DNA of 64,000 nucleotides from Mayamaea pseudoterrestris (taxonomy: Eukaryota), in contig BROI01000023.1 of assembly GCA_027923505.1 (NCBI GenBank), positions 62,001 through 126,000 of the forward strand. The letters are read 5' to 3'. Positions within the stretch are counted from its first letter, which is position 1. Each line of letters starts with the position of its first letter. The translations under genes and the position numbers were made by a program. The notes under the pieces are model-generated. The model saw nothing but the letters and a program-made list of their open reading frames with translations. It had not been told where the DNA came from and searched no databases. Shown here in pieces: positions 17,970-40,459 of this stretch.

Positions 17970-18398
17970 ATTATTCAACTCAAAAATCAGTCACAGCTTG
18001 GATGGATGCTTGGTCCTTGGTTTGATCCTCCCACAGAATTTTTTGGCCGCGGTGTTTGAATTTTGAATCGAACTGCCAGAGCACTCTATGCGCCACAGTA
18101 AATTGCTGCGGCATAACATGCACGCGTTGAAACGCACGATTATAGCGAGCCGGCCGCGCCTTTGGCGCGCGCGTTCACGACATTCCACTCACATCGCCAA
18201 TGAAAAAATGTGGGTAGAGTCGACTTCACTACCTCCGCAATATCTCACCGTAGACATTCACTTCATCAGTCAAGTTGCCGCAAAGCAAGGACGAGAAAAA
18301 GCCAAGGCAAAAGCAAGTTCTCCAGGCCAGACAAAGGAAAGCGTTGACGGGAGACTATTCAAACGCAACCGAAAACCAACAAGACGCAGTGATCAGTG

Positions 18399-20198
18399 AT
18401 GTCCATGTCCACGAACGAACGTTCGTTAGGGTCGCCTAAAACGACCCAGAAACGATCGAGCGAAGGGTCTTCTACCGGCGTGGCGGATCCCACAGCAGAA
18501 TTCGATGCTCCTTCACCTATGCAGAAAAACAAACTCACTGCCTATTTTGCTCGGCGTGAGTCAGCGTCTCCCCGAAGCAAGCCCACAGCTGAGGCGCCAA
18601 GCTTTGAGGAGTATCAGTCACTAAAGCTTTCATCTATACAAACTCATCACTATCGGCCCGACAAGCAGTACGTCATGACAAGTGGTCCGGTTGCCGCCTC
18701 ATCAAGGCCTGCTACTATGCTTAGTACTTCAACACGAAATTCTCGCGAACGAGAAGACATTTTAATGCAAATGATGAAATCGATCAAGTATGCCCGCAGC
18801 CGAAATCGTTATGAAGAAAGGAGCGGGTGTATTCGACCTGCGAAGCAAACGATACAAAATGGCGAAGGCTGTTACGAAGAGCCCCTGGAAAACGTGCCCC
18901 TGCTCGGATTCCATTGGCAGGCCGAGACTAACGTTTACATTCCCGACAAAGTCGGAATTCTTCCGGCCGCAGTATGGAACAAAATGCACAGGGAAGGACG
19001 CATTGATCCTTCTGGGGCTTTTCAAGCAAAAATAACACCAACGAAATGTGATACAGGAATATTCCCAGCGCCAAAGGGGAATCCATTGACTGGCTGTCTC
19101 TGGAATTTTGTGCAAGGTGTATGGATGACAGTGGCGCACGCAGCCAACTATCCCGCAAATGATTTTTGCATTGACCATCTTCACAATGAAGCAATTGCGA
19201 TGCAGCCGCGCAAGATGTCAAAGACACGTAAAAATGGACAATATTCATTTCGGGCGAAAGCCGAGCATGATGGCCGCTTGCTTTCCGATGGCTGCATCGA
19301 GCCTGAAAACGGTACATTTCGAGACGCTAGTGGATTTTTTCTGCGTCCTTACGGACCAAATCCTAAGGGATATTGCTGGGATGCAAGAGTCGGACTTTGG
19401 ATGGAGTCCATGCCAGATGAGTCGCTTGATTCGGAGAATCAGAACCAACAAGATACGAGTATGAGATCATCAACGCTAGCCCGAGCTGCTACTGATTCCC
19501 AGAACGTCATTTACAACAGGTCGACAGAGCCGCAAGTAAATGTTGCAATTGCAGCTACACGCGGGGGCACCAAGGAGCATCAAGCGTCTTTTGCACAGAC
19601 CGACCCACATTTATCAATTAACATCAAAAATAACAATGGTTATAAGCATTCCGCAGCCTCGTGTGCTTCTTTAAATCGCAATCGCTACTCGAACAATCGG
19701 CATTCCTATCCAAGTGTCACTTCCATTATAAATCATGGACGCACAAAACCAGTGCACAGGATAAGCCGAGGCATGCCGGTACCTAGCGTCAATGGTACAA
19801 TGATACATGGAAGAATGGCGACCGCAAGTGATATTGCTATACCTGGTGGCAAGCGCCAAAAAGTGAGCGTGGCATCGGCGTCTGCAGTCTTGGATGGGCA
19901 TGACATTCACTCGAATTCGTTGCCTATTGAGTGGGAGGAGCTGCGCGAACGAGTTCTCAGGTGCCTACTTCATCGCAAAACGTTTTATGAGGCCCTTTGC
20001 ACTTACATCGACGAAGGCGAGGTGGAGCAGATGATGAGGCGCGGGAGAAAGGCCTATAACATTCTCATTCGCCGCGAGCAGAACATTTGCGAGGATTACG
20101 AATTTCTTAAGAATGGTCTCCTCTTGTCATTTGACTCTGACGAGTCCACACTTATTGACTCTATCATTAATGTCCTTGCAATGTTCTCGGATGATTGA
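18399..20198 (+). CDS. Hypothetical protein with three copies of an unnamed 'GR..GCI.P...PxG[FYC]xW....G.[WY]' module and a helical C-terminal domain
   Basis: ~600-aa ORF with internal repeats PLLGFHWQAETNVY, PLTGCLWNFVQGVW and PKGYCWDARVGLW; paralogous to the next gene. Confidence 0.75.
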   Translation: MSMSTNERSLGSPKTTQKRSSEGSSTGVADPTAEFDAPSPMQKNKLTAYFARRESASPRSKPTAEAPSFEEYQSLKLSSIQTHHYRPDKQYVMTSGPVAASSRPATMLSTSTRNSREREDILMQMMKSIKYARSRNRYEERSGCIRPAKQTIQNGEGCYEEPLENVPLLGFHWQAETNVYIPDKVGILPAAVWNKMHREGRIDPSGAFQAKITPTKCDTGIFPAPKGNPLTGCLWNFVQGVWMTVAHAANYPANDFCIDHLHNEAIAMQPRKMSKTRKNGQYSFRAKAEHDGRLLSDGCIEPENGTFRDASGFFLRPYGPNPKGYCWDARVGLWMESMPDESLDSENQNQQDTSMRSSTLARAATDSQNVIYNRSTEPQVNVAIAATRGGTKEHQASFAQTDPHLSINIKNNNGYKHSAASCASLNRNRYSNNRHSYPSVTSIINHGRTKPVHRISRGMPVPSVNGTMIHGRMATASDIAIPGGKRQKVSVASASAVLDGHDIHSNSLPIEWEELRERVLRCLLHRKTFYEALCTYIDEGEVEQMMRRGRKAYNILIRREQNICEDYEFLKNGLLLSFDSDESTLIDSIINVLAMFSDD

Positions 20199-23256: not shown

Positions 23257-23558
23257 ACCGATGAACGGACAGTGATTGAACAGGGCCACATTTCGCCTCC
23301 CATATGCTGCGCAAAACCATTTGATATATTAAAAAGCTCTCTTTCTATCCTTGTAGTTGAAACAATTGTTGCTCCTCTCACTTTAAATACGCGGCGGGAA
23401 AGATCAAGTGCTAGTCTAGGCGCCTTGAAAGCGCACGCGAAATGGCACCGTCGTCATGATCTCATCGTTGTCAAAGCTGCCGCGCCCAGCGGTGCCAGTG
23501 TCACCTTGAGAGTACACATCGACGTCAGCAGTCCGTGACGTCACATTGACTATGGACA

Positions 23559-23697
23559 AAAGTGTACTGCCAAAAACTTTGATTTTTATCAAAGTTATTG
23601 GCACTGTAGAGTAAAGTGTAGTGCCAAAAACTTTCATTTTCAAAGTTATCGGCACTATCAGACAAAGTGTACTTCCAAAAACTTTGATTTTCAAAAA
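23559..23697. repeat. ~52-bp tandem repeat (about 2.7 copies); each full unit is an imperfect inverted repeat
   Basis: Units begin aaagtgta at 23559, 23613 and 23664; within a unit a(c/g)tgccaaaaacttt pairs with aaagttat(t/c)ggcact. Confidence 0.85.
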
Positions 23698-23746
23698 CTA
23701 ATCGAAGACACAGCGCGCCACTATCATTTTTTCATCAGTCTGCGCC

Positions 23747-24385
23747 ATGGGAATATCGCGGCCAAAACGCGGCCATTCAAGGTTACTAATGGCTATTCTC
23801 ATGCCATCTACATTCTCTATAGTGACAGCATTCCAACCATATGCGAAAAGATTGTCAGTTTCGTCTTCGCGACGCTTCAGCACCGCGACAATCATGCATC
23901 CTCAAGCCGCCGTTTCAGTGGGTGTTCGATGCAGAAAAACGACCGACAATAACAGTTACTATCTAATGATACAACGAGGCAAAGAACCAAACAAGGGCAA
24001 ATGGTCCATTCCGGGAGGTCGTCTCATGTTTGGCGAAACTGCCTATGAAGGTGGCGTCCGCGAGTTGGCCGAAGAAACGAAATGGAACGATTCTGCAGCC
24101 TTTCAGTCACTATGCTGGTACAAGGGAACGGTTTGTGCGAGCGACTATGTCGGAAAAGAGTATCACTACTTGATTGCTCAGTGCTTTGCCGAACTGGAGT
24201 GTGACGAGTTACCAATCGTTGTAGCGGACGACGATGCGGATGATGCGAAATGGTTTCTGTTGGACAAAGTCAAGGAATGGAGCGACAAGAGCCTGGTATC
24301 GGAAGGAGTCTACGAAGTGTTTATTCGAATGGAGACATTGGCAAACCATGGGTTTCTTCCGACGACAGAACTGCCTTATAGATGA
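23747..24385 (+). CDS. Nudix hydrolase (ADP-ribose pyrophosphatase-like), probably plastid-targeted
   Basis: Nudix box GGRLMFGETAYEGGVRELAEETK, RGKEPNKGKWSIPGG, ADDDADDAKW; hydrophobic leader ending IVTA-FQP followed by an S/R-rich transit-like stretch. Confidence 0.85.
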   Translation: MGISRPKRGHSRLLMAILMPSTFSIVTAFQPYAKRLSVSSSRRFSTATIMHPQAAVSVGVRCRKTTDNNSYYLMIQRGKEPNKGKWSIPGGRLMFGETAYEGGVRELAEETKWNDSAAFQSLCWYKGTVCASDYVGKEYHYLIAQCFAELECDELPIVVADDDADDAKWFLLDKVKEWSDKSLVSEGVYEVFIRMETLANHGFLPTTELPYR

Positions 24386-24556
24386 CAGTCCGTTGATGAG
24401 GAGCCAGCCAAAGCAAGATGGACACGACAAGCCGTCATTCTCATATACCTGCGCTAGCTTTATTTTATAATTTGCTCGTAAATGTACCATTAATACCTGT
24501 CAATAGTGAAACAAAATCTCGTCTTGAAGAGAGGTATGTAGTCTAGATAGTTCGCT

Positions 24557-25624
24557 TTAGGGAAGGCTGCTCAGGACATCATCCACTCCCTTCTTACGTC
24601 GCTTCGGATCAGCGCTAATCAAACCGCCCGTCGGAAAGCCATACCAAATGCATCCGGCGACTCGCTCCTTGGATGTATCGACGCCACAAATGTCAGCGAA
24701 TTCGCTCGTCTTTTGCACCGGGCCACTGGTCCATTTCGTGCCTATGCCTTCACTCCACATGCTCAGCATAAAGTTTTGAACGGCGCAGCTGGTCGATTTA
24801 AAATCTTCAAGCTCTCGTTCCGGATCATGCGGCGACAGTTTGGTTGTCACGACACACCATCCGGGAATCTTGGTCCAATCGACGCTCGATGATAAGCCAT
24901 CGGCAGTTTCCATAGTTTGCATTGACTTTTGTTTCAGCTGCACAAACTTTTGCACCGTCTCTGGTCCAACTTGAATGAATCTCCAAGGTTCCGACTGACT
25001 ACGGTTCGGCGCAGCAATCGCGCAAGTGACAGCCCGACGCAAGACGGCGCGATCCACTGGCGTTTGGTCAAACTGGTCAACCGTCCGTCGGCCGACAATG
25101 AGTGACTGAAACTCCATGGCAACTTGCTTGGCTGCTTCCGATGTCTTTAAATACCACGGCAAAAAGTCATCGACTGACACTTCACCAGTTTCGTCAACGT
25201 CAAAGTATTTGAACAAGGCTTGCACGTCTTGAGGACTAGCGTCAATGTCAAGCATGCGGAGCATTTCGTCAAGCTCAACGGCATCCAATGTACCGGAATT
25301 GTCGGTATCGACGCGCGAAAAGACTTCGAGGGCGTGCTCCAGTTCGGCTGTTGAAGAGGTCCAAAAGTTGGAATTCTCAATAGCACTGCTGTCAGCGGCA
25401 TCGGCGGTATCGTCTCGGCTGAATGATGCCAATGAAGTTATCACCGCAGCTGCTCGCGATGGCGTAGTGATGGCATTGAGTTTTCTGCTCGTCAGATGCA
25501 CAGGAGCTAAAAACGCATTGTGAAAAGGAATTAGCGCCAGCAGAAATAAAAGACTCTTAGGACGAAGAAACGCATTGGCTAAAGGCAGGCAAGCCGCTTG
25601 AAGCAAGCCTTGGCGCATCTTCAT
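24557..25624 (-). CDS. EF-hand pair fused to a nitroreductase-family (FMN) domain, probably plastid-targeted
   Basis: EF loops DTDNSGTLDAVE and DVDETGEVSVDD; nitroreductase motifs GRRTVDQF, AIAAPNRSQSEPWRF, CAVQNFMLSMWSEGIGTKW and IWYGFP; leader ...LLALIPFHNA-FLAP. Confidence 0.85.
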   Translation of the reverse strand: MKMRQGLLQAACLPLANAFLRPKSLLFLLALIPFHNAFLAPVHLTSRKLNAITTPSRAAAVITSLASFSRDDTADAADSSAIENSNFWTSSTAELEHALEVFSRVDTDNSGTLDAVELDEMLRMLDIDASPQDVQALFKYFDVDETGEVSVDDFLPWYLKTSEAAKQVAMEFQSLIVGRRTVDQFDQTPVDRAVLRRAVTCAIAAPNRSQSEPWRFIQVGPETVQKFVQLKQKSMQTMETADGLSSSVDWTKIPGWCVVTTKLSPHDPERELEDFKSTSCAVQNFMLSMWSEGIGTKWTSGPVQKTSEFADICGVDTSKERVAGCIWYGFPTGGLISADPKRRKKGVDDVLSSLP

Positions 25625-25841
25625 GGTTGATGTGTGAAGATGGCATGGAAGAAGAAAGATCGCAGTTCAAACTTATGTCGCTACGGTACTGATCGAGAAC
25701 CTTTACTCGCTGCGCGCGGAACGAGACGTTGCTTCGGTTCCTTTCCCGCCAATGCACAATGCGGAAAATGGTCATATCAATAAATTACTTACTCCGCACG
25801 AGCACACTTTTGATTCAGAAAGCTGATACTGCGATATCATC

Positions 25842-26399
25842 ATGGACCATCGTGGGCAACAAGAGTTTGGCATCCACCCGCCAGCCGCTGCTCCTGGCGG
25901 CCAGGGCCACGGGAGGATTCGCGTCATGATTCAGCAGCAGCAGCTGGAGGAGGAGCCTATCGGTGGCGTACCTATCATTGTGAGACTCGGTGGCTCGCCC
26001 CCACGCCTGCATGATGACGGTTTTGCGCCTTTTGCGCGCGCACGAGTTGCACTTCCGTTCCCTGCCGAGGTCCCTCATGATCTCGACGATGACGACTTTA
26101 ACGACGACGACAATCCAGTATTGGCTAATCTGAATGAAGCGGTCAACCCATTTAACGCAGGCCATGCTCGCGCTCGCTCCCATCACTTGTTCATGCTTCA
26201 TCCTGCGCCGCCGGAGGACGACTTGGAACTTTTTCGTGGCCTCATTCCTTTACACCTTGGCGAAAATCTTGTAACTGACCATGAAGACTCATGGAGCAGT
26301 TCCAGTCTCAATACAATGCATAGCAACAACGCTTTGAGTGAAACCAGTGGTTTGCAAAGAAACGGTCATGGCGATGAATCGATGGAATTTAACTATTAA
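25842..26399 (+). CDS. Short hypothetical low-complexity protein
   Basis: 185-aa ORF, divergent from the nitroreductase gene; no homology recognised. Confidence 0.4.
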   Translation: MDHRGQQEFGIHPPAAAPGGQGHGRIRVMIQQQQLEEEPIGGVPIIVRLGGSPPRLHDDGFAPFARARVALPFPAEVPHDLDDDDFNDDDNPVLANLNEAVNPFNAGHARARSHHLFMLHPAPPEDDLELFRGLIPLHLGENLVTDHEDSWSSSSLNTMHSNNALSETSGLQRNGHGDESMEFNY

Positions 26400-26725
26400 A
26401 AACAAGACGCAGTCTGAAGGATGCATGTGAATGCATGGGAGTTTTGAAAGTCATCAAAAATGAAACGTGGAAGTAGGAACCTTCAGACATAGATAGTTTT
26501 CGAATATGTGGTAATCTAATTAGTCGATAAAATGCAAGCGTTTAAAGTAACATATTTAAATCATAAGGAACGAAAAAGCTGTTGCTAGCAAAGAATCCAT
26601 CCGGCACTGAAAAGACCGTTTCATTCATGCGTGACGCTTGAACGACCAATCTCGCATTCGCCCAAGCTTGCGATGCGGATGTGACACTTTCATTGGATTT
26701 GTGGCTGCTTAAAAAACTTATTTCA

Positions 26726-27700
26726 GGAATCATCATTGTTGCCTGTTGAGGCCTCCAATCCATTCAATTCATGTTTGGTTTCATGATGGGCCAATGGTTG
26801 GGTCAAATGCACATATTGTAGTCTCCACAAAGATGTTCGCCATGGTGAGACTCATCAGATCCAACAACTTGTTGGATCTGGTAGCAGTGCACCTCCAGTG
26901 GCACTGTAGGCTGGCAGAATGGCCCACCACGCCTGGAATACAAACACCATTCCGTTTCTAATTGATTAGAATACAAAGGCTTGTCAGCTTGGGTGTGAAT
27001 CCATCCCCTTGCCATGAGACTCCACACATTCAACAAGTGGTTGAATGTGCCAGCGGTGCAAATCTTTTTGGCTACAGGAATCATCAGTGTTGCCTGTTGA
27101 GCCCTCCAATCCATTCAATTCATGATTGGTGTCATGATGGGCCAATGTTTGGGTCAATTGCACCCATTGCAGTCTCCACAAAGATGTTCACCATGGTGAG
27201 ACTCAGCAGATCCAACAATTTGTTGGATCTGGTAGCGGTGCACCTCCAGTGGCACTGCAGGCTGCCAGAGTGGCCTGCCACTCCTGTTATACAACAAAGA
27301 TTCCGTTTAAAGTGGAATACAACAAACATTCCATTTAAAATAGAATGGGACTGATAGTCTCGTCATTTTGGGTGTGGAACCCATCACCATGCTAGGAGAT
27401 TCCGCACATTCAACAAATGGTTGAATGTGCCAGCAGGGCCCCCTTTTTGGCTGCAAAGATCATCAGCATTGCGTGCTGAGCCCTCCAATACCTATCAATT
27501 CATGTTTGTTGACATGATGGGCTAGGAAGTTGGTCACATGCACCTCATTATCCATCACCATGGATGCTATTGGTGATACTTGGCAGATCCAACAACTTGT
27601 TGGATCTGCGAGCCCTGCACCTCAAGTGGCAAGTCCAACTGCCTGAATGGCCAACAGACCCTGGAATACAACAAACATGGACATTGCATTCCATGGAGAC
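26726..27700. repeat. Diverged ~350-380-bp tandem repeat (about 2.7 copies), each a dimer of ~170-180-bp palindrome-bearing subunits; left flank of the satellite
   Basis: Units begin near 26726, 27076 and 27456 (aggaatcatca../aagatcatca..); shared blocks cctccaat...tcaattcatg, cagatccaacaaNttgttggatctg, gcacctcNagtggca and cacattcaacaaNtggttgaatgtg. Confidence 0.85.
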
Positions 27701-27778
27701 ATTAGCCTGTCAACTTGTCTTGTAGTGCATCTGAAATAAGGTTGTGAGTTGGATACAAAAAAACATGGGCAGTTCAGA

Positions 27779-28040
27779 CATCCACACAGGAACCAGCTCC
27801 ATGGTGCTACAGTGCATGGCCTACAAAATCTACTCCCAATTGTAGTCTTGATCCATCAATCTTGTTTAGCTATGCTTGAAGACATGCTTGCGGTGAGATT
27901 GCTGCCCAAAAATCATCCATAGCTGATTCGTAGCAGCTACAGTATGGAAGGGCAACACAGCCATCCACACAGGAACCAGCACCATGGTGCTACAGTGCGT
28001 GCCCTTCCATACCTACCCCCAAATGTAGTCATTGTCCAGT
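27779..28040. repeat. Two diverged copies of a ~183-bp unit bridging the left-flank repeat and the satellite
   Basis: catccacacaggaaccagc(t/a)ccatggtgctacagtgc at 27779 and 27962. Confidence 0.75.
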
Positions 28041-31000
28041 CTGTGCAACAAGATGGTATGCTTGGACTGGCAGGTGTCTGAGGGGATGGCAATGTATTTG
28101 GTGACAACTTGTCACCAGTCTCAGCCCGCAGATGCCATGACATTCAAACGCCCCTACAGCAAACCCTGTAGGTGCCCAAATTACACCAGAATGGTGCCAA
28201 CATCATTATTCAGGCTGCGCTACAAGATGGTAGGCTTGGCTGGTGTCTCAGGGGATGGCAATGTATTTGGTGACAACTTGTCACCAGTCTCAGCCCGCAG
28301 ATGCCATGACATTCAAATGCCCCTACAGCAAGCCCTGTAGGTGCCCAAATGACACCAGAATGGTGCCAACATCATTATTCAGGCTGCGCTACAAGATGGT
28401 AGGCTTGGCTGGTGTCTCAGGGGATGGCAATGTATTTGGTGACAACTTGTCACCAGTCTCAGCCCGCAGATGCCATGACATTCAAATGCCCCTACAGCAA
28501 GCCCTGTAGGTGCCCAAATGACACCAGAATGGTGCCAACATCATTATTCAGGCTGCGCTACAAGATGGTAGGCTTGCCTGGTGTCTCAGGGGATGGCAAT
28601 GTATTTGGTGACAACTTGTCACCAGTCTCAGCCCGCAGATGCCACAACATTCAAATGCCCCTACAGCAAGCCCTGTAGGTGCCCAAATTACACCAGAATG
28701 GTGCCAACATCATTATTCAGGCTGCGCTACAAGATGGTAGGCTTGGCTGGTGTCTCAGGGGATGGCAATGTATTTGGTGACAACTTGTCACCAGTCTCAG
28801 CCCGCAGATGCCATGACATTCAAACGCCCCTACAGCAAGCCCTGTAGGTGCCCAAATGACACCAGAATGGTGCCAACATCATTATTCAGGCTGCGCTACA
28901 AGATGGTAGGCTTGGCTGGTGTCTCAGGGGATAGCAATGTATTTGGTGACAACTTGTCACCAGTCTCAGCCCGCAGATGCCATGACATTCAAACGCCCCT
29001 ACAGCAAGCCCTGTAGGTGCCCAAATGACACCAGAATGGTGCCAACATCGTTATTCAGGCTGCGCTACAAGATGGTAGGCTTGCCTGGTGTCTCAGGGGA
29101 TGGCAACGTATTTGGTGACAACTTGTCACCAGTCTCAGCCCGCAGATGCCATGACATTCAAACGCCCCTACAGCAAGCCCTGTAGGTGCCCAAATGACAC
29201 CAGAATGGTGCCAACATTGTTATTCAGGCTGCGCTACAAGATGGTAGGCTTGGCTGGTGTCTCAGGGGATGGCAATGTATTTGGTGACAACTTGTCACCA
29301 GTCTCAGCCCGCAGATGCCACGACATTCAAACGCCCCTACAGCAAGCCCTGTAGGTGCCCAAATGACACCAGAATGGTGCCAACATCAATATTCAGGTTG
29401 CGCTACAAGATAGGAGACTTGGCTGGTGTCTGAGGGGATGGCAATGTATTTGGTGACAACTTGTCACCATTTTCAGCCCGCAGATGCCATGACATTCAAA
29501 CGCCCCTACAGCAAGCCCTGTTGGTGCCCAAATGACACCAGAATGGTGCCAACATCATTACTTCGGCTGCGCTACATGATGGTAGGCTTGGCTGGTGTCT
29601 CAGGGGATGGCAATGTATTTGGTGTCAACTTGTCACCAGTCTCAGCCTGCAGATGCCATGACATTCAAACGCCCCTACAGCAAGCCCTGTTGGTGCCCAA
29701 ATGACACCAGAATGGTGCCAACATCATTATTTCGGCTGCGCTACAAGATGGTAGGCTTGGCTGGTGTCTCAGGGGATGGCAATGTATTTGGTGACAACTT
29801 GTCACCAGTCTCAGCCCGCAGATGCCATGACATTCAAACGCCCCTACAGCAAGCCCTGTAGGTGCCCAAATTACACCAGAATGGTGCCAACATCATTATT
29901 CAGGCTGCGCTACAAGATGGTAGGCTTGGCTGGTGTCTCAGGGGATGGCAATGTATTTGGTGACAACTTGTCACCAGTCTCAGCCCGCAGATGCCATGAC
30001 ATTCATATACCCCTACAGCAAGCCCTGTTGGTGCCCAAATGACACCAGAATGGTGCCAACATCATTATTTCGGCTGCGCTACAAGATGGTAGGCTTGGCT
30101 GGTGTCTCAGGGGATGGCAATGTATTTGGTGACAACTTGTCACCAGTCTCAGCCCGCAGATGCCATGACATTCAAACGCCCCTACAGCAAGCCCTGTAGG
30201 TGCCCAAATGACACCAGAATGGTGCCAACATCATTATTTTAACTGCGCTACAAGATGGTAGGCTTGGCTGGTGTCTCAGGGGATGGCAATGTATTTGGTG
30301 ACAACTTGTCACCAGTCTCAGCCTGCAGATGCCATGACATTCAAACGCCCCTACAGCAAGCCCTGTAGGTGCGCAAATGACACCAGAATGGTGCCAACAT
30401 CATTATTCAGGCTGCGCTACAAGATGGTAGGCTTGCCTGGTGTCTCAGGGGATGGCAATGTATTTGGTGACAACTTGTCACCAGTCTCAGCCCGCAGATG
30501 CCATGACATTCAAACGCCCCTACAGCAAGCCCTGTAGGTGCGCAAATGACACCAGAATGGTGCCAACACCATTATTCAGGCTGCGCTACAAGATGGTAGG
30601 CTTGCCTGGTGTCTCAGGGGATGGCAATGTATTTGGTGACAACTTGTCACCAGTCTCAGCCTGCAGATGCCATGACATTCAAACGCCCCTACAGCAAGCC
30701 CTGTAGGTGCCCAAATGACACCAGAATGGTGCCAACATCATTATTCAGGCTGCGCTACAAGATGGTAGGCTTGGCTGGGGTCTCAGGGGATGGCAATGTA
30801 TTTGGTGACAACTTGTCATCAGTCTCAGCCCGCAGATGCCATGACATTCAAACGCCCCTACAGCAAGCCCTGTAGGTGCCCAAATGACACCAGAATGGTG
30901 CCAACATCGTTACTTCGGCTGCGCTACAAGATGGTAGGCTTGGCTGGTGTCTCAGGGGATGGCAACGTATTTGGTGACAACTTGTCACCAGTCTCAGCCC

Positions 31001-34000
31001 GCAGATGCCATGACATTCAAACGCCCCTACAGCAAGCCCTGTAGGTGCCCAAATAACACCAGAATGGTGCCAACATCGTTATTTCGGCTGCGCTACAAGA
31101 TGGTAGGCTTGGCTGGTGTCTCAGGGGATGGCAATGTATTTGGTGACAACTTGTCACCAGTCTCAGCCCGCAGATGCCATGACATTCAAACGCCCCTACA
31201 GCAAGCCCTGTAGGTGCCCAAATGACACCAGAATGGTGCCAACATCATTATTCAGGCTGCGCTACAAGATGGTAGGCTTGGCTGGTGTCTCAGGGGATGG
31301 CAATGTATTTGGTGACAACTTGTCACTAGTCTCAGCCCGCAGATGCCGTGACATTCAAACAACCCTACAGCAAGCCCTGTAGGTGCCCAAATTACACCAG
31401 AATGGTGCCAACACCATTATTCAGGCTGCGCTACAAGATGGTAGGCTTGCCTGGTGTCTCAGGGGATGGCAATGTATTTGGTGACAACTCGTCACCAGTC
31501 TCAGCCCGCAGATGCCATGACATTCAAACGCCCCTACAGCAAGCCCTGTTGGTGCCCAAATTACACCAGAATGGTGCCAACATCATTATTCAGGCTGCGC
31601 TACAAGATGGTAGGCTTGGCTGGTGTCTCAGGGGATGGCAATGTATTTGGTGACAACTTGTCACCAGTCTCAGCCCGCAGATGCCATGACATTCAAATTC
31701 CCTACAGCAAGCCCTGTTGGTGCCCAAATGACACCAGAATGGTGCCAACATCATTATTTCGGCTGCGCTACAAGATGGTAGGCTTGGCTGGTGTCTCAGG
31801 GGATGGCAATGTATTTGGTGACAACTTGTCACCAGTCTCAGCCCGCAGATGCCATGACATTCATACACCCCTACAGCAAGCCCTGTAGGTGCCCAAATGA
31901 CACCAGAATGGTGCCAACATCATTATTCAGGCTGCGCTACAAGATGGTAGGCTTGGCTGGTGTCTCAGGGGATGGCAATGTATTTGGTGACAACTTGTCA
32001 CCAGTCTCAGCCCGCAGATGCCATGACATTCAAACGCCCCTACAGCAAGCCCTGTAGGTGCCCAAATGACACCAGAATGGTGCCAACATCATTATTCAGG
32101 CTGCGCTACAAGATGGTAGGCTTGGCTGGTGTCTCAGGGGATGGCAATGTATTTGGTGACAACTTGTCACCAGTCTCAGCCTGCAGATGCCATGACATTC
32201 AAACGCCCCTACAGCAAGCCCTGTAGGTGCCCAAATGACACCAGAATGGTGCCAACATCATTATTCAGGCTGCGCTACAAGATGGTAGGCTTGGCTGGTG
32301 TCTCAGGGGATGGCAATGTATTTGGTGACAACTTGTCACCAGTCTCAGCCCGCAGATGCCATGACATTCAAACGCCCCTACAGCAAGCCCTGTAGGTGCG
32401 CAAATGACACCAGAATGGTGCCAACATCATTATTCAGGCTGCGCTACAAGATGGTAGGCTTGCCTGGTGTCTCAGGGGATGGCAATGTATTTGGTGACAA
32501 CTTGTCACCAGTCTCAGCCCGCAGATGCCATGACATTCAAACGCCCCTACAGCAAGCCCTGTAGGTGCGCAAATGACACCAGAATGGTGCCAACACCATT
32601 ATTCAGGCTGCGCTACAAGATGGTAGGCTTGGCTGGTGTCTCAGGGGATGGCAATGTATTTGGTGACAACTTGTCACCAGTCTCAGCCTGCAGATGCCAT
32701 GACATTCAAACGCCCCTACAGCAAGCCCTGTAGGTGCCCAAATGACACCAGAATGGTGCCAACATCATTATTCAGGCTGCGCTACAAGATGGTAGGCTTG
32801 GCTGGGGTCTCAGGGGATGGCAACGTATTTGGTGACAACTTGTCATCAGTCTCAGCCCGCAGATGCCATGACATTCAAACGCCCCTACAGCAAGCCCTGT
32901 AGGTGCCCAAATGACACCAGAATTGTGCCAACATCGTTACTTCGGCTGCGCTACAAGATGGTAGGCTTGGCTGGTGTCTCAGGGGATGGCAACGTATTTG
33001 GTGACAACTTGTCACCAGTCTCAGCCCGCAGATGCCATGACATTCAAACGCCCCTACAGCAAGCCCTGTAGGTGCCCAAATGACACCAGAATGGTGCCAA
33101 CATCATTATTCAGGCTGCGCTACAAGATGGTAGGCTTGGCTGGTGTCTCAGGGGATGGCAATGTATTTGGTGACAACTTGTCACCAGTCTCAGCCCGCAG
33201 ATGCCGTGACATTCAAACAACCCTACAGCAAGCCCTGTAGGTGCCCAAATGACACCAGAATGGTGCCAACACCATTATTCAGGCTGCGCTACAAGATGGT
33301 AGGCTTGGCTGGTGTCTCAGGGGATGGCAATGTATTTGGTGACAACTTGTCACCAGTCTCAGCCCGCAGATGCCGTGACATTCAAACGCCCCTACAGCAA
33401 GCCCTGTAGGTGCCCAAATTACACCAGAATGGTGCCAACACCATTATTCAGGCTGCGCTACAAGATGGTAGGCTTGCCTGGTGTCTCAGGGGATGGCAAT
33501 GTATTTGGTGACAACTTGTCACCAGTCTCAGCCCGCAGATGCCATGACATTCAAATGCCCCTACAGCAAGCCCTGTTGGTGCCCAAATGACACCAGAACA
33601 GTGCCAACAGCATTACTTCGGCTGCGCTACAAGATGGTAGGCTTGGCTGGTGTCTCAGGGGATGGCAATGTATTTGGTGACAACTTGTCACCAGTCTCAG
33701 CCCGCAGATGCCACGACATTCAAACAACCCTACAGCAAGCCCTGTAGGTGCCCAAATGACACCAGAATGGTGCCAACATCATTATTCAGGCTGCGCTACA
33801 AGATGGTAGGCTTGGCTGGTGTCTCAGGGGATGGCAATGTATTTGGTGACAACTTGTCACCAGTCTCAGCCCGCAGATGCCATGACATTCAAATGCCCCT
33901 ACAGCAAGCCCTGTTGGTGCCCAAATGACACCAGAACAGTGCCAACAGCATTACTTCGGCTGCGCTACAAGATGGTAGGCTTGGCTGGTGTCTCAGGGGA

Positions 34001-37000
34001 TGGCAATGTATTTGGTGACAACTTGTCACCAGTCTCAGCCCGCAGATGCCATGACATTCAAACGCCCCTACAGCAAGCCCTGTAGGTGCCCAAATGACAC
34101 CAGAATGGTGCCAACATCATTATTCAGGCTGCGCTACAAGATGGTAGGCTTGGCTGGTGTCTCAGGGGATGGCAATGTATTTGGTGACAACTTGTCACCA
34201 GTCTCAGCCCGCAGATGCCATGACATTCAAACGCCCCTACAGCAAGCCCTGTAGGTGCCCAAATGACACCAGAATGGTGCCAACATTATTATTCAGGCTG
34301 CGCTACAAGATGGTAGGCTTGGCTGGTGTCTCAGGGGATGGCAATGTATTTGGTGACAACTTGTCACCAGTCTCAGCCCGCAGATGCCACGACATTCAAA
34401 TGCCCCTACAGCAAGCCCTGTAGGTGCCCAAATGACACCAGAATGGTGCCAACATCATTATTCAGGCTGCGCTACAAGATGGTAGGCTTGGCTGGTGTCT
34501 CAGGGGATGGCAATGTATTTGGTGACAACTTGTCACCAGTCTCAGCCCGCAGATGCCACGACATTCAAATGCCCATACAGCAAGCCCTGTAGGTGCCCAA
34601 ATGACACCAGAATGGTGCCAACATCATTATTCAGGCTGCGCTACAAGATGGTAGGCTTGGCTGGTGTCTCAGGGGATGGCAATGTATTTGGTGACAACTT
34701 GTCACCAGTCTCAGCCCGCAGATGCCATGACATTCAAACGCCCCTACAGCAAGCCCTGTAGGTGCCCAAATGACACCAGAATGGTGCCAACACATCTTCC
34801 GATCCTCAAATCTTCCTGGTGTCTCAGGGGATGGCAAGTATTTCCTGCGCTACAAGATGGTAGGCCCATGTGGGCCTCTCGGTGCGCTCATAGCTCTGCA
34901 GGGGATGGCAATGTATTTGGTGACAACTTGTCACCAGTCTCAGCCCGCAGATGCCACAACATTCAAACGCCCCTACAGCAAGCCCTGTAGGTGCCGAAAT
35001 TACACCAGAATGGTGCCAACATCATTATTCAGGCTGCGCTACAAGATGGTAGGCTTGGATGGTGCCTCAGGGGATGGCAATGTATTTGGTGACAACTCGT
35101 CACCAGTCTCAGCCCGCAGATGCCATGACATTCAAACGCCCCTACAGCAAGCCCTGTAGGTGCCCAAATTACACCAGAATGGTGCCAACATCATTATTTC
35201 GGCTGCGCTACAAGATGGTAGGCTTGGATGGTGCCTCAGGGGATGGCAATGTATTTGGTGACAATTTGTCACCAGTCTCAGCCCGCAGATGCCACAACAT
35301 TCAAATGCCCCTACAGCAAGCCCTGTAGGTGCCGAAATTACACCAGAATGGTGCCAACATCATTATTCAGGCTGCGCTACAAGATGGTAGGCTTGGATGG
35401 TGCCTCAGGGGATGGCAATGTATTTGGTGACAACTCGTCACCAGTCTCAGCCCGCAGATGCCATGACATTCAAACGCCCCTACAGCAAGCCCTGTAGGTG
35501 CCCAAATTACACCAGAATGGTGCCAACATCATTATTTTGGCTGCGCTACAAGATGGTAGGCTTGGATGGTGCCTCAGGGGATGGCAATGTATTTGGTGAC
35601 AACTCATCACCAGTCTCAGCCCGCAGATGCCATGACATTCAAACGCCCCTACAGCAAGCCCTGTAGGTGCCCAAATGACACCAGAATGGTGCCAACATCA
35701 TTATTCAGGCTGCGCTACAAGATGGTAGGCTTGGCTGGTGTCTCAGGGGATGGCAATGTATTTGGTGACAACTTGTCACCAGTCTCAGCCCGCAGATGCC
35801 ATGACATTCAAACGCCCCTACAGCAAGCCCTGTTGGTGCCCAAATGACACCAGAATGGTGCCAACACCATTATTCAAGCTGCGCTACAAGATGGTAGGCT
35901 TGGCTGGTGTCTCAGGGGATGGCAATGTATTTGGTGACAACTTGTCACCAGTCTCAGCCCGCAGATGCCACGACATTCAAACGCCCCTACAGCAAGCCCT
36001 GTAGGTGCCCAAATGACACCAGAATGGTGCCAACATCGTTACTTCGGCTGCGCTACAAGATGGTAGGCTTGGCTGGTGTCTCAGGGGATGGCAATGTATT
36101 TGGTGACAACTTGTCACCAGTCTCAGCCCGCAGATGCCATGACATTCAAACGCCCCTACAGCAAGCCCTGTAGGTGCCCAAATGACACCAGAATGGTGCC
36201 ATTATCATTAATTCGGCTGCGCTACATGATGGTAGGCTTGGCTGGTGTCTCAGGGGATGGCAATGTATTTGGTGGCAACTTGTCACCAGTCTCAGCCCGC
36301 AGATGCCATGACATTCAAACGCCCCTACAGCAAGCCCTGTAGGTGCCCAAATGACACCAGAATGGTGCCAACATCATTACTTCGGCTGCGCTACATGATG
36401 GTAGGCTTGCCTGGTGTCTCAGGGGATGGCAATGTATTTGGTGACAACTTGTCACCAGTCTCAGCCTGCAGATGCCACGACATTCAAATGCCCCTACAGC
36501 AAGCCCTGTAGGTGCCCAAATGACACCAGAATGGTGCCAACATCATTATTCAGGCTGCGCTACAAGATGGTAGGCTTGGCTGGGGTCTCAGGGGATGGCA
36601 ATGTATTTGGTGACAACTTGTCACCAGTCTCAGCCCGCAGATGCCATGACATTTAAACGCCCCTACAGCAAGCCCTGTTGGTGCCCAAATGACACCAGAA
36701 TGGTGCCAACATCATTACTTCGGCTGCGCTACATGATGGTAGGCTTGGCTGGTGTCTCAGGGGATGGCAATGTATTTGGTGACAACTTGTCACCAGTCTC
36801 AGCCCGCAGATGCCATGACATTCAAACGCCCCTACAGCAAGCCCTGTAGGTGCCCAAATGACACCAGAATGGTGCCAACATCATTATTCAGGCTGCGCTA
36901 CAAGATGGTAGGCTTGGCTGGTGTCTCAGGGGATGGCAATGTATTTGGTGACAACTTGTCACCAGTCACAGCCCGCAGATGCCACGACATTCAAATGCCC

Positions 37001-38456
37001 CTACAGCAAGCCCTGTAGGTGCCCAAATTACACCAGAATGGTGCCAACATCATTATTTTAACTGCGCTACAAGATGGTAGGCTTGGCTGGTGTCTCAGGG
37101 GATGGCAATGTATTTGGTGACAACTTGTCACCAGTCTCAGCCCGCAGATGCCATGACATTTAAACGCCCCTACAGCAAGCCCTGTTGGTGCCCAAATTAC
37201 ACCAGAATGGTGCCAACATTATTACTTCGGCTGCGCTACAAGATGGTAGGCTTGGCTGGTGTCTCAGGGGATGGCAATGTATTTGGTGACAACTTGTCAC
37301 CAGTCTCAGCCCGCAGATGCCATGACATTCAAATGCCCCTACAGCAAGCCCTGTAGGTGCCCAAATTACACCAGAATGGTGCCAACATCATTATTTTAAC
37401 TGCGCTACAAGATGGTAGGCTTGGCTGGTGTCTCAGGGGATGGCAATGTATTTGGTGACAACTTGTCACCAGTCTCAGCCCGCAGATGCCATGACATTCA
37501 AACGCCCCTACAGCAAGCCCTGTAGGTGCCCAAATGACACCAGAATGGTGCCAACATCATTATTCAGGCTGCGCTACAAGATGGTAGGCTTGGCTGGTGT
37601 CTCAGGGGATGGCAATGTATTTGGTGACAACTTGTCACCAGTCTCAGCCCGCAGATGCCATGACATTCAAACGCCCCTACAGCAAGCCCTGTAGGTGCCC
37701 AAATGACACCAGAATGGTGCCAACATCGTTATTCAGGCTGCGCTACAAGATGGTAGGCTTGGCTGGTGTCTCAGGGGATGGCAATGTATTTGGTGACAAC
37801 TTGTCACCAGTCACAGCCCGCAGATGCCACGACATTCAAATGCCCCTACAGCAAGCCCTGTAGGTGCCCAAATTACACCAGAATGGTGCCAACATCATTA
37901 TTTTAACTGCGCTACAAGATGGTAGGCTTGGCTGGTGTCTCAGGGGATGGCAATGTATTTGGTGACAACTTGTCACCAGTCTCAGCCCGCAGATGCCATG
38001 ACATTAAAACGCCCCTACAGCAAGCCCTGTTGGTGCCCAAATTACACCAGAATGGTGCCAACATCATTATTCAGGCTGCGCTACAAGATGGTAGGCTTGG
38101 CTGGTGTCTCAGGGGATGGCAATGTATTTGGTGACAACTTGTCACCAGTCTCAGCCCGCAGATGCCATGACATTCAAACGCCCCTACAGCAAGCCCTGTT
38201 GGTGCCCAAATGACACCAGAATGGTGCCAACATCATTATTCAGGCTGCGCTACAAGATGGTAGGCTTGGCTGGTGTCTCAGGGGATGGCAATGTATTTGG
38301 TGACAACTTGTCACCGGTCTCAGCCCGCAGATGCCATGACATTCAAACGCCCCTACAGCAAGCCCTGTAGGTGCCCAAATGACACCAGAATGGTGCCAAC
38401 ATCATTATTCAGGCTGCGCTACAAGATGGTAGGCTTGGCTGGTGTCTCAGGGGATG
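28040..38456. repeat. 169-bp tandem satellite, ~62 copies, ~10.4 kb, highly homogeneous
   Basis: Consensus ggtgcccaaatgacaccagaatggtgccaacatcattattcaggctgcgctacaagatggtaggcttggctggtgtctcaggggatggcaatgtatttggtgacaacttgtcaccagtctcagcccgcagatgccatgacattcaaacgcccctacagcaagccctgta. The ORF track steps by 169; there is one 1-bp deletion near 31700 and one +60-bp disruption near 34791-34900. Confidence 0.98.
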
Positions 38457-38945
38457 CGATACAATATGGAAGGCTTGGCTGGTGTCTCAGGGGATGGCAA
38501 TGTGACTGGTGAGAACTTCGCACCAGTCTCTGCCCGCAGATGCCTTGACCTTCCAATGCTCATATATCAAGCCATGTGCACCCAAAACATACAAGAATGG
38601 CGCCAGCATTATTTTCAGGCTGCGTTACAAGATGGAATGCTTGGCTTGTCCCTTTGGATGCTGCAATGCCATTGTTGAGAACTTCTCACCTGTCCCAGTG
38701 TCCCAGCCAGCAGCAGCCATGACTTCAACAGCCCATTTTCTCAGAGCCATGTCCATGGACAATACACACCAGAATGGTGGAATTGTATATCTTTTAGGCT
38801 GGTCTACAAAGATGGAATACCTGCTCATTGGTGAGAACTCCCAGCTAGCAGCAGCCTTTGACTTTCAGCAGGCCATTCTCCGAGCCATGTCATTTGCTCC
38901 TTATCGCAGCGGTTCTTGCACCAGAATGCGTGATAATAATATTAT
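38457..38945. repeat. About 3 progressively degenerate satellite monomers (right flank)
   Basis: Recognisable caccagaatg, caggctgcg-tacaagatgg and ggtgagaact blocks with increasing divergence out to ~38940. Confidence 0.85.
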
Positions 38946-39193
38946 GACCGATTCGATACCGAACCTTTTCTCGTTGTCACACATTCATCATCTGATCCCG
39001 CAAGCAAATGTTAGTTGCTGTACATTAATTTGTGTATTCGGTATACTCGCAAGAAGGAAATCGACTGCATCGTACGACTTGCAAGCCGCAGAGTCTCGTT
39101 GATTTTCCAAATTCCAAGCGCTGGCTCGCTGGGTCACTTCACCTCTTTGTCACATCCTAAGGTCTTGCGTTCGATCTCCAGTCATATTATTTC

Positions 39194-40459
39194 ATGTCTG
39201 TATCAAGTTCATTGCCGCCTCAATGGCTTCCGACAGATCAGCTGCAACAGGAGCTCCTCGAAATGGATCCAGACTTTGCAACGCCGCAGCCTCTCTCCGA
39301 GATTGTTTTGCAGGGACGCCTGCAAGATTCCTTTCTTGACTGGAATGACTTCACAGATAGATGCCTTGCAAGCTTGACAGAAAAGCCGATTGTATGGACG
39401 GGTCCTCATGTGTTTCTGACCACAGCCATGGGTATTTCCGACTTGGTTGACAGCTGGCATGATGCCATTGCTCATATTTACGTGAGTCGATGCGCCGCGA
39501 GTGAGCACATGACTATTAATGGGAATGATGAACAGCAAGGCGGGGACGACACAAATGTGTACTCTCTTTATACAACGTTTGAGGAACATCCAATGCGAAC
39601 GCTCGACGGCATTTGCAAGCTGCTTAGTCATTGCCAACCACCGCTGAATAGCGTTCAAGTCTCCATGCTCATGCATCCACTTTCCACACTGAGTCTTTCA
39701 AGATTGGCTTCCGGCAATATACGCAAGATAGAAATCACGACACCGAAGGGTGTTTGGTCCGGTCGCGAGTGCCAGGCGCTTGCATCTGCGAGCGATCCTA
39801 GATGTCAGCTTGAAATCATGGTGGATTCATTGACGGACAGTGCTTCCAAAACCCTGGCCACAGTACTGGCAAGCAATGCAGGTCCGTCAAGATTACGACT
39901 GGGCACCATTGAATGGGACGCCTTTTTGCGCCTCACGCAGCCGCTTGCCGACCCAGGTACCACGCGATTACAGTCTTTGACAGTATTGGAGGTGACAAAT
40001 GTTCATCTTGCCGTCTTGGCCGTTTCACTGGCAACAAACGCTGGATTGGAGGAGCTGGCTATTGTGGGGACGTTTGGAAGCAAGGAGACTGACACAAGCT
40101 TTCAAGCATTGATGCAAGCAGTGGCGACTCATTCGAGCATGACCAGTTTGACGCTGAACCTTCATCTCGCCCCAAACACGAGTGAAAGACGCGTTGCCGA
40201 GCTGAGTCAAGCAATTCAAGACATGATCGTTCAAAGCAAGAGCTTGACGCATGTCAGCCTTCCGCTAGACTATGCTTTTTTGGAATGCATCTCCATTGAC
40301 GTTGATCGCTACATAAAATACAATCAACATCGACCGAGAGCTGCGGCGTTGCGGGCATCGAGCTACCATCAAAAACTCTTGTCAACTACGTTAGCGGCAG
40401 TCAACGACATAAACGAATTGGTTTATCTGTTTCTGCGGCAAGCAGTCGAGTACTTGTAA
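39194..40459 (+). CDS. RNI-like / leucine-rich-repeat protein of a lineage-expanded family
   Basis: 421-aa ORF; LxxLxL-type repeats (RLQSLTV, NAGLEELAI, HSSMTSLTL, SKSLTHVSL) and the C-terminal 'LLSTTLAAV..NELVYLFL' tail often seen in diatom RNI-like proteins. Confidence 0.7.
   Translation: MSVSSSLPPQWLPTDQLQQELLEMDPDFATPQPLSEIVLQGRLQDSFLDWNDFTDRCLASLTEKPIVWTGPHVFLTTAMGISDLVDSWHDAIAHIYVSRCAASEHMTINGNDEQQGGDDTNVYSLYTTFEEHPMRTLDGICKLLSHCQPPLNSVQVSMLMHPLSTLSLSRLASGNIRKIEITTPKGVWSGRECQALASASDPRCQLEIMVDSLTDSASKTLATVLASNAGPSRLRLGTIEWDAFLRLTQPLADPGTTRLQSLTVLEVTNVHLAVLAVSLATNAGLEELAIVGTFGSKETDTSFQALMQAVATHSSMTSLTLNLHLAPNTSERRVAELSQAIQDMIVQSKSLTHVSLPLDYAFLECISIDVDRYIKYNQHRPRAAALRASSYHQKLLSTTLAAVNDINELVYLFLRQAVEYL

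Follow-up and report, generated by a model that had tools for sequence, protein, structure and literature searches.

Nucleosome-length satellites are known from several well-studied genomes, including human alpha satellite (171 bp), the Arabidopsis repeat (178-180 bp) and rice CentO (155 bp). To our knowledge, diatom genomes have been described as transposon-rich and essentially without classical satellites, and the only experimentally defined diatom centromeres that we know of are short, AT-rich and repeat-free. Phaeodactylum tricornutum and Fistulifera solaris are naviculoid relatives of the diatom addressed here. For P. tricornutum, the accessible part of one report places the centromeres, by ChIP and episome assays, in short repeat-free regions below 33% GC, with sequences of typical GC failing in episome maintenance, and gives as a rule at least 500 bp at less than 33% GC, clustered 100-bp windows at 32% GC or less, and no repeats (10.1101/096016). 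The putative centromeres of F. solaris lie at 36-42% GC and are without highly repeated elements (10.1101/2021.11.10.468027). Our literature search found no CENH3/CENP-A study of tandem repeats in diatoms, nor any paper on satellite families of diatoms or on diatom centromeres made of satellites.

Two further systems offer a likeness. The satellites PpSat1 and PpSat2 of the oomycete Phytophthora parasitica, as presented in a portion of their source, likewise belong to a stramenopile, comprise several families with differing unit lengths and dynamics, and were found only after a better assembly; the oomycete is nevertheless a different phylum-level lineage, and the likeness is one of description (PMC7290008). 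In the insect Tribolium castaneum, arrays of about 170 bp on the euchromatic arms place satellite-typical units among genes, as here, according to excerpts of the original report, whereas the euchromatic array described below seems to represent a small fraction of a far larger complement that escaped assembly (PMC4675708).

This report addresses a 169-bp satellite array within a window of 64 kb (64,000 nucleotides, the whole stretch of DNA analysed) from a 525,119-bp contig of Mayamaea pseudoterrestris. The array and its neighbours are arranged as follows, in coordinates of the window.

24557-25624, minus strand: left gene with EF-hand and nitroreductase domains, a 355-aa open reading frame (ORF) from an ATG (Pfam)
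26713-27680, no strand given: second tandem family, 351-380-bp unit, about 2.7 copies (direct-repeat families D1-D5 and D7; Tandem Repeats Finder, TRF, period 380)
27767-28038, no strand given: third tandem family, 183-bp unit, about 1.5 copies (direct-repeat family D6)
28029-34782, plus strand: 169-bp satellite, left block, monomers 0-39 (TRF, anchor scan, monomer alignment, blastn)
34783-34898, no strand given: interruption of the array (sequence reading; anchor spacing of 229 instead of 169)
34899-38456, plus strand: 169-bp satellite, right block, monomers 40-60 (TRF, anchor scan, monomer alignment)
38457-38920, plus strand: decayed 169-bp monomers of the right edge (blastn, alignment against shuffles, TRF)
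39194-40459, plus strand: right long ORF, 421 aa, without a Pfam family, a putative gene by ORF length only

The array proper (28029-38456, plus strand) holds 61 monomers of 169 bp, arranged head-to-tail on a single strand, about 96% alike and of 52% GC. At period 169, TRF reports it as 39.8 copies (28068-34792) and 21.1 copies (34899-38456), each with 96% matches. A 22-nt anchor of the monomer, with up to four substitutions allowed, matches 62 times on the plus strand and never on the minus strand, and the spacing between anchors is exactly 169 in 58 of 61 cases, the remaining three being 168, 229 and 209. Among the 58 full monomers the mean pairwise identity is 96.2%; six monomers are identical to the consensus, which has a GC content of 52.1%. 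The first-pass annotation had counted about 62 near-identical monomers, and these figures bear it out. The 168-bp monomer, at 31629, is the only one of that length in the left block. Between the blocks lies a patch of about 115 bp (34783-34898), composed of shuffled monomer fragments with roughly 24 nt and 33 nt of non-satellite filler, which may be a poorly resolved assembly join. Elsewhere in the 64-kb window, blastn found no further copies of the unit.

Within the blocks, the array carries traces of local block duplication. In the left block, monomers ~11-19 recur at a lag of 12 as monomers 23-31; the copies show 1.6-2.6 differences per monomer, where the mean over the array is 6.4. Identical pairs are found on both sides of the patch (15 and 27, 32 and 34 in the left block; 52 and 57 in the right), and in the right block monomers 40 and 42, as well as 41 and 43, differ by one or two bases. 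Identity is otherwise flat across lags 1-14 (0.959-0.965), without a periodic higher-order repeat. A centromeric satellite would be expected to show higher-order repeats, or a homogenised core between older layers; the array shows local block duplications, and layered decay on the right edge alone. The monomer bears short perfect dyads, GGTGACAA-C-TTGTCACC and CCTACAG-n6-CTGTAGG. Its folding energy is unexceptional (z -1.17; 23 of 200 shuffles fold equally well), and a special hairpin potential was rejected at this value.

The two edges of the array differ. On the right, decay increases outward through the monomers at 38488, 38656 and 38825, whose alignments score z 70, 17 and 3 against shuffles, and blastn identity to the consensus falls from 74% over 38488-38779 to 68% over 38656-38779; a 40-bp local duplication (TRF period 40) is also found at this edge, at 38415-38496. 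On the left, the array begins abruptly and mid-monomer at 28029, adjoining the two other tandem families. The degenerate edges reported earlier are thus seen on the right and not on the left.

The second family, with direct repeats D1-D5 and D7 spaced 351-380 apart and inverted repeats I1-I4, is built of a dimer of ~182-198-bp subunits, whose two types are mutually related (z 11) and show no detectable relation to the 169-bp unit (z 0-1.8). It contains a 25-nt perfect palindrome, CAGATCCAACAAnTTGTTGGATCTG, occurring three times against none expected, and a protein search with its ORF found no homologue. In the third family, the 89-nt D6 copies stand 183 bp apart at 82% identity, and they too are unrelated to the 169-bp unit (z 0.1-0.4). 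A common origin of the three families was rejected by alignment against shuffles. Dyads of the ACAAnTTGT type are nevertheless present in all three, despite this lack of detectable relation.

The array is non-coding. The unit length of 169 nt equals 3 x 56 + 1, every one of the six frames of the tandem consensus is interrupted by stop codons, and a protein-coding repeat was rejected for the window on this ground. The soil-catalogue protein P0123 corresponds to about 3.7 translated monomers, at 87% identity, and is open over its length; this is no evidence of coding, since a protein-level catalogue keeps open frames only. From 25600 to 39300 there are no Rfam matches at E <= 1, and a search for tRNA genes gave none.

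The repeats lie among genes. The left gene (PF00881 at 8.5e-18, together with EF-hand families) and the right ORF both turn their 5' ends towards the repeat domain, and the array occupies a 13.5-kb gap between these divergently oriented genes. About 275 bp separate the last recognisable decayed monomer from the start of the right ORF at 39194. On the other side, the start of the left gene is 1,089 bp distant from the composite repeat domain and 2.4 kb distant from the 169-bp array; in this interval lies an ORF at 25842-26399 that has no support and stops 314 bp short of the domain. The earlier statement that genes resume within about 300 bp on both sides holds for the right side, whereas on the left the first gene with Pfam support is 1,089 bp away. 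Diatom homologues of the nitroreductase/EF-hand protein are 58-76% identical to it, the best named relatives coming from Cylindrotheca, Seminavis and Nitzschia, in agreement with the diatom-like chromosome first proposed; from its sequence, the source organism is recognisable as a raphid pennate diatom with a small genome. More than 25 kb with long ORFs extends on either side of the array, and the telomere repeat (TTAGGG)3 is absent from both strands of the 64-kb window, so that the locus is interstitial, not subtelomeric.

The composition of the repeats sets them sharply apart. Over the repeat domain (26713-38920), the CpG observed/expected ratio is 0.19-0.30, against 1.11 in the rest of the window. 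By segment, the ratio is 0.19 in both the 351-380-bp and 183-bp families, 0.27 in the decayed edge and 0.30 in the 169-bp array, the array figure amounting to that of one 169-nt consensus (3 CpGs against 11.4 expected) and the left families adding 1.2 kb only. TpG and CpA are enriched in the repeat segments (1.58-1.78). None of 151 control windows of 1.3 kb falls below 0.88, and the non-repeat spacers adjoining the domain stand at 1.14 and 1.34, so the depleted and TpG/CpA-enriched domain is sharply bounded and coincides with the repeats. Of the 217 variant cells among the monomers, the six CpG positions account for 24, every one a C>T or G>A change, where 3.6% would be expected. A deficit of CpG and an excess of TpG/CpA that stop at the limits of the repeat are the pattern of methylated heterochromatic repeats. 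We infer that the depletion is the footprint of long-term cytosine methylation, with a putative silent chromatin state. The alternative proposal of the first-pass annotation, a discrete heterochromatin block, gains support from it. For P. tricornutum, the part of the source at hand describes CG methylation, laid down by DNMT5a, as marking transposable elements and silencing them (PMC9998398).

The abundance of the family was read from contigs assembled from public reads of four runs, of which X1 and X2 come from different studies; contig joints and loose ends (e.g. 28021>28619, 25-nt side) fell below the reliability guide and were left out. In both studies the satellite depth is about 10^4 times that of the single-copy flank. 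Summed contig depth does not translate into copy number, and other organisms may contribute to it, so that any estimate in megabases is an order of magnitude only. In X1, a single 5,525-bp contig makes up the unique flank, at a word depth of 105.4, against totals of 1.48-7.08 million in the four satellite bins; in X2, the flank depth is 30.5 and the bins reach 196,000-789,000. Contigs matching a 5.8-kb stretch number 73,730 of 555,133 in X1 and 14,460 of 182,933 in X2, and they include common satellite variants that are absent among the window's core monomers. The neighbouring families are high-copy too, with summed depths in X1 of 48,800-200,900 for the 351-380-bp family and 11,000-20,100 for the 183-bp family, against the same flank. 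In runs X4 and X5 the satellite is accompanied by a handful of contigs that match the flank exactly, at a depth of 2-3, too thin for more than presence. The small-share runs from soil, rhizosphere and leaf litter (X9-X16) carry no weight here as evidence of habitat.

The family is also found at a second locus: on a contig of 917,834 bp, an NCBI 'hypothetical protein' of Mayamaea pseudoterrestris proves to be diverged monomers in translation, at 58-62% identity. Two contigs are thus known to carry the family. The repetitive proteins P0124 (archaeal MAG) and P0125 (mite), at E ~1e-4 to 1e-3, were judged chance matches, and exact 37-mer and 22-mer monomer patterns had no match in metagenome contigs. 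With depth at such an excess over the flank, the family is multi-locus and probably megabase-scale. The assembled array is probably cut short, and most of the family would be absent from the long-read assembly or collapsed in it. The earlier caution that the assembly may not give the real length of the array is very probably correct. It had also been stated that presence at one locus only, or only at subtelomeres, would speak against a centromeric role; the excess depth, the diverged copy on the second contig and the interstitial position show neither. K-mer estimators of genome size commonly drop very-high-copy k-mers. In the parts of the Mayamaea paper available to us, the k-mer genome size is 27.2 Mb, near the 30.6-Mb assembly, and Table S3 gives 0 bp of 'Satellites' with 2.26 Mb 'Unclassified', which at face value argues against a large missing satellite fraction; the words 'satellite' and 'tandem' do not occur in its main text (PMC9724779).

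The locus combines the hallmarks of satellite DNA, being a one-strand head-to-tail array, non-coding, and at high copy at more than one locus. Compared with plant and animal satellites, whose general properties are taken from part of a review (PMC8122249), it shares a unit of about one nucleosome, the one-strand arrangement, a homogeneity of ~96%, local block duplications, edge decay, a non-coding character, and abundance in the genome with under-representation in assemblies. Unlike them, it is of 52% GC and not AT-rich, is without higher-order repeat periodicity, and, in a compact genome of ~30 Mb, has a gene starting ~275 bp away. The likeness is one of organisation, and similarity in sequence is not expected.

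The likely explanation, in our judgement, is a very abundant, non-coding 169-bp satellite family, methylated and of heterochromatin type, that evolves by unequal exchange. Its arrays would expand, contract and homogenise through unequal crossing-over and gene conversion, while the repeats would carry CpG methylation and lie in silent chromatin resembling heterochromatin, each unit holding about one nucleosome and the remaining CpGs continuing to mutate to TpG/CpA. The family would take up megabases of the real genome, mostly absent from the assembly or collapsed in it, and the array would be one assembled locus, beside small blocks of the 351-380-bp and 183-bp satellite-like families.

Other explanations deserve weight in differing measure. 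There is an appreciable chance, short of even, that the 10.4-kb length, the patch and possibly the flank linkage reflect a collapse or false join inside a much longer real array. The out-of-order fragments and filler sit exactly at the split into 6.7-kb and 3.6-kb blocks, the depth implies far more copies than were assembled, and the nanopore reads behind the assembly, in the part of the paper that describes them, have an N50 of 8.6 kb, shorter than the array (PMC9724779). However, both blocks have variant types in common, e.g. C.TC and TTAA at monomer positions 129-134, and the left flank to 26885 is confirmed by the 5,525-bp contig in two runs. An origin from or within a mobile element (a Helitron, a MITE or a retrotransposon-derived repeat), with spread by transposition, seems improbable. 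Three unrelated tandem families with short palindromes adjoin here, the 169-bp family is dispersed to other contigs, and plant satellites often arise from retrotransposon-derived tandem repeats, in the excerpt consulted (PMC7004042); but 25,600-39,200 contains no transposase, reverse-transcriptase or Rep/helicase ORF, its ORFs of at least 100 aa being satellite read-throughs or family-less only, the bounds of the repeat domain lack the terminal repeats of a transposable element, and viral contigs gave no satellite match. An ordinary single-locus macrosatellite (VNTR) without genome-wide presence would fit the one locus in the 64-kb window, and if the depth signal were an artefact, this is what the array would be; it is very improbable, as depth and contig counts in two studies exceed 62 copies by orders of magnitude (unless another organism was in both runs), and diverged copies are found on another contig and in an environmental record.

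A functional satellite centromere is in our view unlikely. On this proposal, made by analogy with alpha satellite and the ~180-bp satellites of plants, the family would bind CENH3/CENP-A and nucleate the kinetochore, either at this locus or in larger arrays, one to a chromosome, that are missing from the assembly. The unit has nucleosome length and short perfect dyads, the family is multi-locus and the locus interstitial, and among the read-derived contigs matched to the region it is by far the commonest tandem repeat; the commonest tandem repeat is reportedly a widely used predictor of centromeric satellites in plants and animals, a usage attributed to Melters et al. 2013. The window also holds no competing low-GC cluster of the P. 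tricornutum type: 9 of 1,279 windows of 100 bp are at 32% GC or less, with at most two in any 3 kb, and the lowest 500-bp GC is 39.6%. The GC scan, however, spans 64 kb of a 525-kb contig, and a low-GC centromere could lie elsewhere on it; the folding energy is ordinary (z -1.17), and a satellite of 52% GC conflicts with the low-GC rule of diatom centromeres. Like the centromeres of P. tricornutum and the putative ones of F. solaris, the locus belongs to a naviculoid diatom and is intergenic, kb-scale and close to genes; unlike those short, repeat-free regions (<33% and 36-42% GC, respectively), it consists purely of tandem repeats at 52% GC. A shade more doubtful is the fuller version, a centromeric or centromere-embedding satellite in arrays of hundreds of kb, one per chromosome and collapsed in the assembly, by which the genome would perhaps be at least a third larger and the lineage would have switched from low-GC, repeat-free Phaeodactylum-type centromeres to a GC-balanced, methylated satellite centromere. 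If true, this would be the first satellite centromere in diatoms, possibly in stramenopiles.

Returning to the abundant methylated satellite that we favour, its megabase-scale, CpG-depleted arrays, if true, would mean that an entire compartment of the genome can be lost from small long-read assemblies of diatoms, and that k-mer genome sizes of such diatoms can run too low. The 169-bp satellite provides a concrete probe sequence for FISH, CENH3 ChIP and 5mC calling. It opens the questions of how conserved the diatom centromere type is, and of how heterochromatin may exist a few hundred bases from active genes.

The 169-bp array is real and far beyond chance, a conclusion which follows from its strict periodicity and the identity of its monomers. 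The elements of the repeat domain and the genes that border it are listed below, with both blocks of the array as delimited by Tandem Repeats Finder.

24557-25624, minus strand: EF-hand/nitroreductase gene, 5' end toward the repeat domain
26713-27680: 351-380-bp tandem family, about 2.7 copies, a dimer of ~182-198-bp subunits
26856-26880, 27207-27231, 27584-27608; 27025-27050, 27404-27429: palindromes of the 351-380-bp family
27767-28038: 183-bp tandem family, about 1.5 copies
28068-34792: 169-bp period, left block, 39.8 copies, 96% matches
34783-34898: interruption of the array, ~115 bp, with out-of-order monomer fragments and non-satellite fillers of ~24 nt and 33 nt
34899-38456: 169-bp period, right block, 21.1 copies, 96% matches
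39194-40459, plus strand: 421-aa ORF, 5' end toward the repeat domain

A 22-nt anchor (up to 4 substitutions) matches 62 times on the plus strand and never on the minus strand. The spacing between anchors is exactly 169 in 58 of 61 cases, the exceptions being 168 (monomer at 31629), 229 (across 34783-34898) and 209 (first decayed monomer). Mean pairwise identity is 96.2% across the 58 full-length monomers, and six monomers match the consensus (52.1% GC) exactly. The ~62 near-identical monomers reported in the first-pass annotation are thus borne out. Monomer identity is flat with distance (0.959-0.965 over lags 1-14), and therefore the array has no regular higher-order repeat. There are nonetheless internal duplications: a block of monomers (~11-19) is repeated at 23-31, the two copies showing 1.6-2.6 differences per monomer versus an array mean of 6.4, the pairs 15 and 27, 32 and 34, and 52 and 57 are identical, and a dimer is duplicated in monomers 40-43. 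Such duplications point to unequal exchange, or possibly to assembler consensus building. The satellite is non-coding, with a unit of 3x56+1 nt and stops in all six frames of the tandem consensus; no Rfam match was found in the repeat region, and no tRNA gene was found. The monomer contains two short perfect dyads, and its single-strand folding is not unusual (z -1.17).

The repeat domain is composite and spans 26713-38920, since two unrelated tandem families precede the 169-bp array. Kinship of the 351-380-bp or the 183-bp family with the 169-bp unit was considered, and none was detectable (z 0-1.8). In the 351-380-bp family, a perfect 25-nt palindrome occurs 3 times versus 0 expected, and perfect or near-perfect palindromes of 25-26 nt occur once per ~190-bp subunit. 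An ACAAnTTGT-type core is common to these palindromes and to the 169-bp monomer's dyad (GGTGACAACTTGTCACC), the units being otherwise unrelated; this common core could be a protein-binding or cruciform motif. The degenerate edges described earlier hold on the right, where three more monomers decay outward (blastn identity 74%, then 68%; alignment z-scores versus shuffles 70, 17 and 3), but not on the left, where the array starts abruptly and mid-monomer at 28029. The patch at 34783-34898, with 6.7 kb of the array on its left and 3.6 kb on its right, may be a place where the assembly was joined or left unpolished. The published genome of Mayamaea pseudoterrestris, the probable source of the window or a very close relative of it, comprises 30.6 Mb in 41 contigs, with a nanopore read N50 of 8.6 kb and a genome size estimated from k-mers at 27.2 Mb (PMC9724779). 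The assembled array length of 10.4 kb exceeds this N50, and may well represent the collapsed or falsely joined form of a longer array.

All segments of the repeat domain are depleted in CpG, as the observed/expected ratios indicate.

169-bp array: 0.30
351-380-bp family: 0.19
183-bp family: 0.19
Decayed right edge: 0.27
Rest of the window: 1.11
Non-repeat spacer 25625-26712: 1.14
Non-repeat spacer 38921-39193: 1.34

No control window of 1.3 kb, out of 151, falls below 0.88. The depletion in the array is effectively that of one 169-nt consensus (3 CpGs versus 11.4 expected), and the left families contribute just 1.2 kb of independent sequence. The repeat segments are enriched in TpG and CpA (1.58-1.78), and 24 of 217 variant cells in the array fall on the 6 CpG positions (3.6% expected), all being C>T or G>A. 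This pattern, confined to the repeats, is what long-term CpG methylation and subsequent deamination classically leave behind. In Phaeodactylum tricornutum, transposable elements are marked and silenced via CG methylation by DNMT5a (PMC9998398), and by analogy the simplest explanation would be a DNMT5a-type CG methylation machinery acting on satellites.

The abundance of the family was assessed by placing Logan contigs of four public runs on positions 23000-28800, a 5.8-kb stretch. Two runs from different studies, X1 and X2, gave the following depths.

X1: flank in one 5,525-bp contig at word depth 105.4; four satellite bins at 1.48-7.08 million, 14,000-67,000x flank
X2: flank contig likewise 5,525 bp, depth 30.5; satellite bins at 196,000-789,000, 6,400-25,900x flank

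Over 3,886 bp, the flank contig of X1 shows 5 differences from the window, and the stretch received 73,730 of the 555,133 contigs in X1 and 14,460 of the 182,933 in X2. Stacking 62 copies on ~4.3 monomers would be expected to give only ~14x flank depth. Read for order of magnitude only, because depth summed over contigs does not measure copy number and may take in other organisms, these depths correspond to about 10^4-10^5 monomers, that is, megabases of satellite; sequencing errors can inflate contig number, not summed depth. The left-flank families are also repeated, with depths of 48,800-200,900 (351-380-bp) and 11,000-20,100 (183-bp) versus 105.4 in X1. The run contigs carry abundant variants missing from the core monomers of the window, such as ...GCCATGTATACACCC...

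At the protein level, a word-index search of 5.8 billion proteins with the satellite's 84-aa read-through ORF gave one match, a Mayamaea pseudoterrestris 'hypothetical protein' on a 917,834-bp contig (58% identity); its sequence shows it to be a translated stretch of monomers from a diverged subfamily resembling the right-edge monomers. Four proteins, among them the Mayamaea protein and the soil-catalogue protein P0123 (208 aa, 87% identity), reached E <= 1e-3 in a complete phmmer scan over 1.84 billion representatives; the two others, matches to repetitive proteins, were put down to chance. P0123 carries the GCCATGTATACACCC variant and reads through ~3.7 monomers in one continuous frame, and therefore all three phases of its unit are open. 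The window consensus has 5 stops per 507 nt on the plus strand, and the open frame of P0123 is probably a selection artefact of protein-level assembly. Run depth and phmmer matches together establish that the 169-bp family is multi-locus and exists outside this assembly, in which it is probably heavily under-represented. According to the genome paper, repeats, mostly Copia, make up 19% of the genome; the satellite entry of Table S3 reads 'Satellites 0, 0 bp', 2.26 Mb is given there as 'Unclassified', and the words 'satellite' and 'tandem' are absent from its main text (PMC9724779).

Long ORFs occupy more than 25 kb on each side of the repeat domain within the window. Genes had been placed within ~300 bp on both sides; this is so on the right, where the gene starts ~275 bp beyond the last recognisable decayed monomer, but the left gene starts 1,089 bp away. 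Among the best 120 matches, the closest named relatives of the nitroreductase protein are the raphid pennate diatoms Cylindrotheca (66-67%), then Seminavis and Nitzschia, in keeping with the diatom-like chromosome first proposed. A 51-bp tandem repeat (2.6 copies, 23559-23695) lies just upstream of a NUDIX-domain ORF (23747-24385); bins over it reach 6-26x flank depth in X1 and X2, so the unit is repeated elsewhere in the genome. Another, of 42 bp (57969-58349, ~9 copies, 79% matches, nested 122/164/206-bp periods), lies between genes and is an unrelated minisatellite. At 51826-55556, two adjoining long ORFs with weak sulfotransferase-domain matches look like a tandem gene duplication.

We consider it likely that the array represents one locus of a major satellite family of this diatom, not reported before, which would be kept homogeneous by unequal exchange and conversion, and would be methylated and probably heterochromatic. 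The unit lengths of 169, 183 and ~2x190 bp would suit one nucleosome per unit. The first-pass annotation went further and proposed a candidate satellite centromere, a role that we regard as unlikely. Nucleosome length and dyad symmetries in the monomer are consistent with it, and no tandem repeat seen was more abundant than this family, a property used as one heuristic to recognise the centromeric satellites of plants and animals. Confinement to one locus or to subtelomeres, named there as speaking against a centromere, is not what was found: the family is multi-locus, and this locus is interstitial, with no telomere repeats in the 64-kb window. However, the satellite is at 52% GC, and the P. 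tricornutum centromeres, described as the only functionally defined ones in diatoms, are short, below 33% GC and repeat-free, with episomes not maintained by DNA of typical GC (10.1101/096016). Putative Fistulifera centromeres are likewise described as 36-42% GC and without highly repeated elements (10.1101/2021.11.10.468027). The window holds no low-GC cluster of the Phaeodactylum type (9 of 1,279 100-bp windows at or below 32% GC, at most 2 per 3 kb; lowest 500-bp GC 39.6%), and a low-GC centromere could sit in the remaining 461 kb of the 525,119-bp contig.

As a class of element, satellite DNA is familiar. In the literature searched, we found no description of a diatom satellite DNA family or of a satellite centromere in diatoms; among stramenopiles, the closest precedent is PpSat1/2 of Phytophthora parasitica (PMC7290008). 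Should the depth signal prove an artefact, only an ordinary intergenic macrosatellite would be left. The interest of the satellite is that it occurs in a lineage believed to be free of such DNA, that it seems to constitute a large, hidden part of a 'compact' genome, and that it opens the diversity of diatom centromeres to direct tests.
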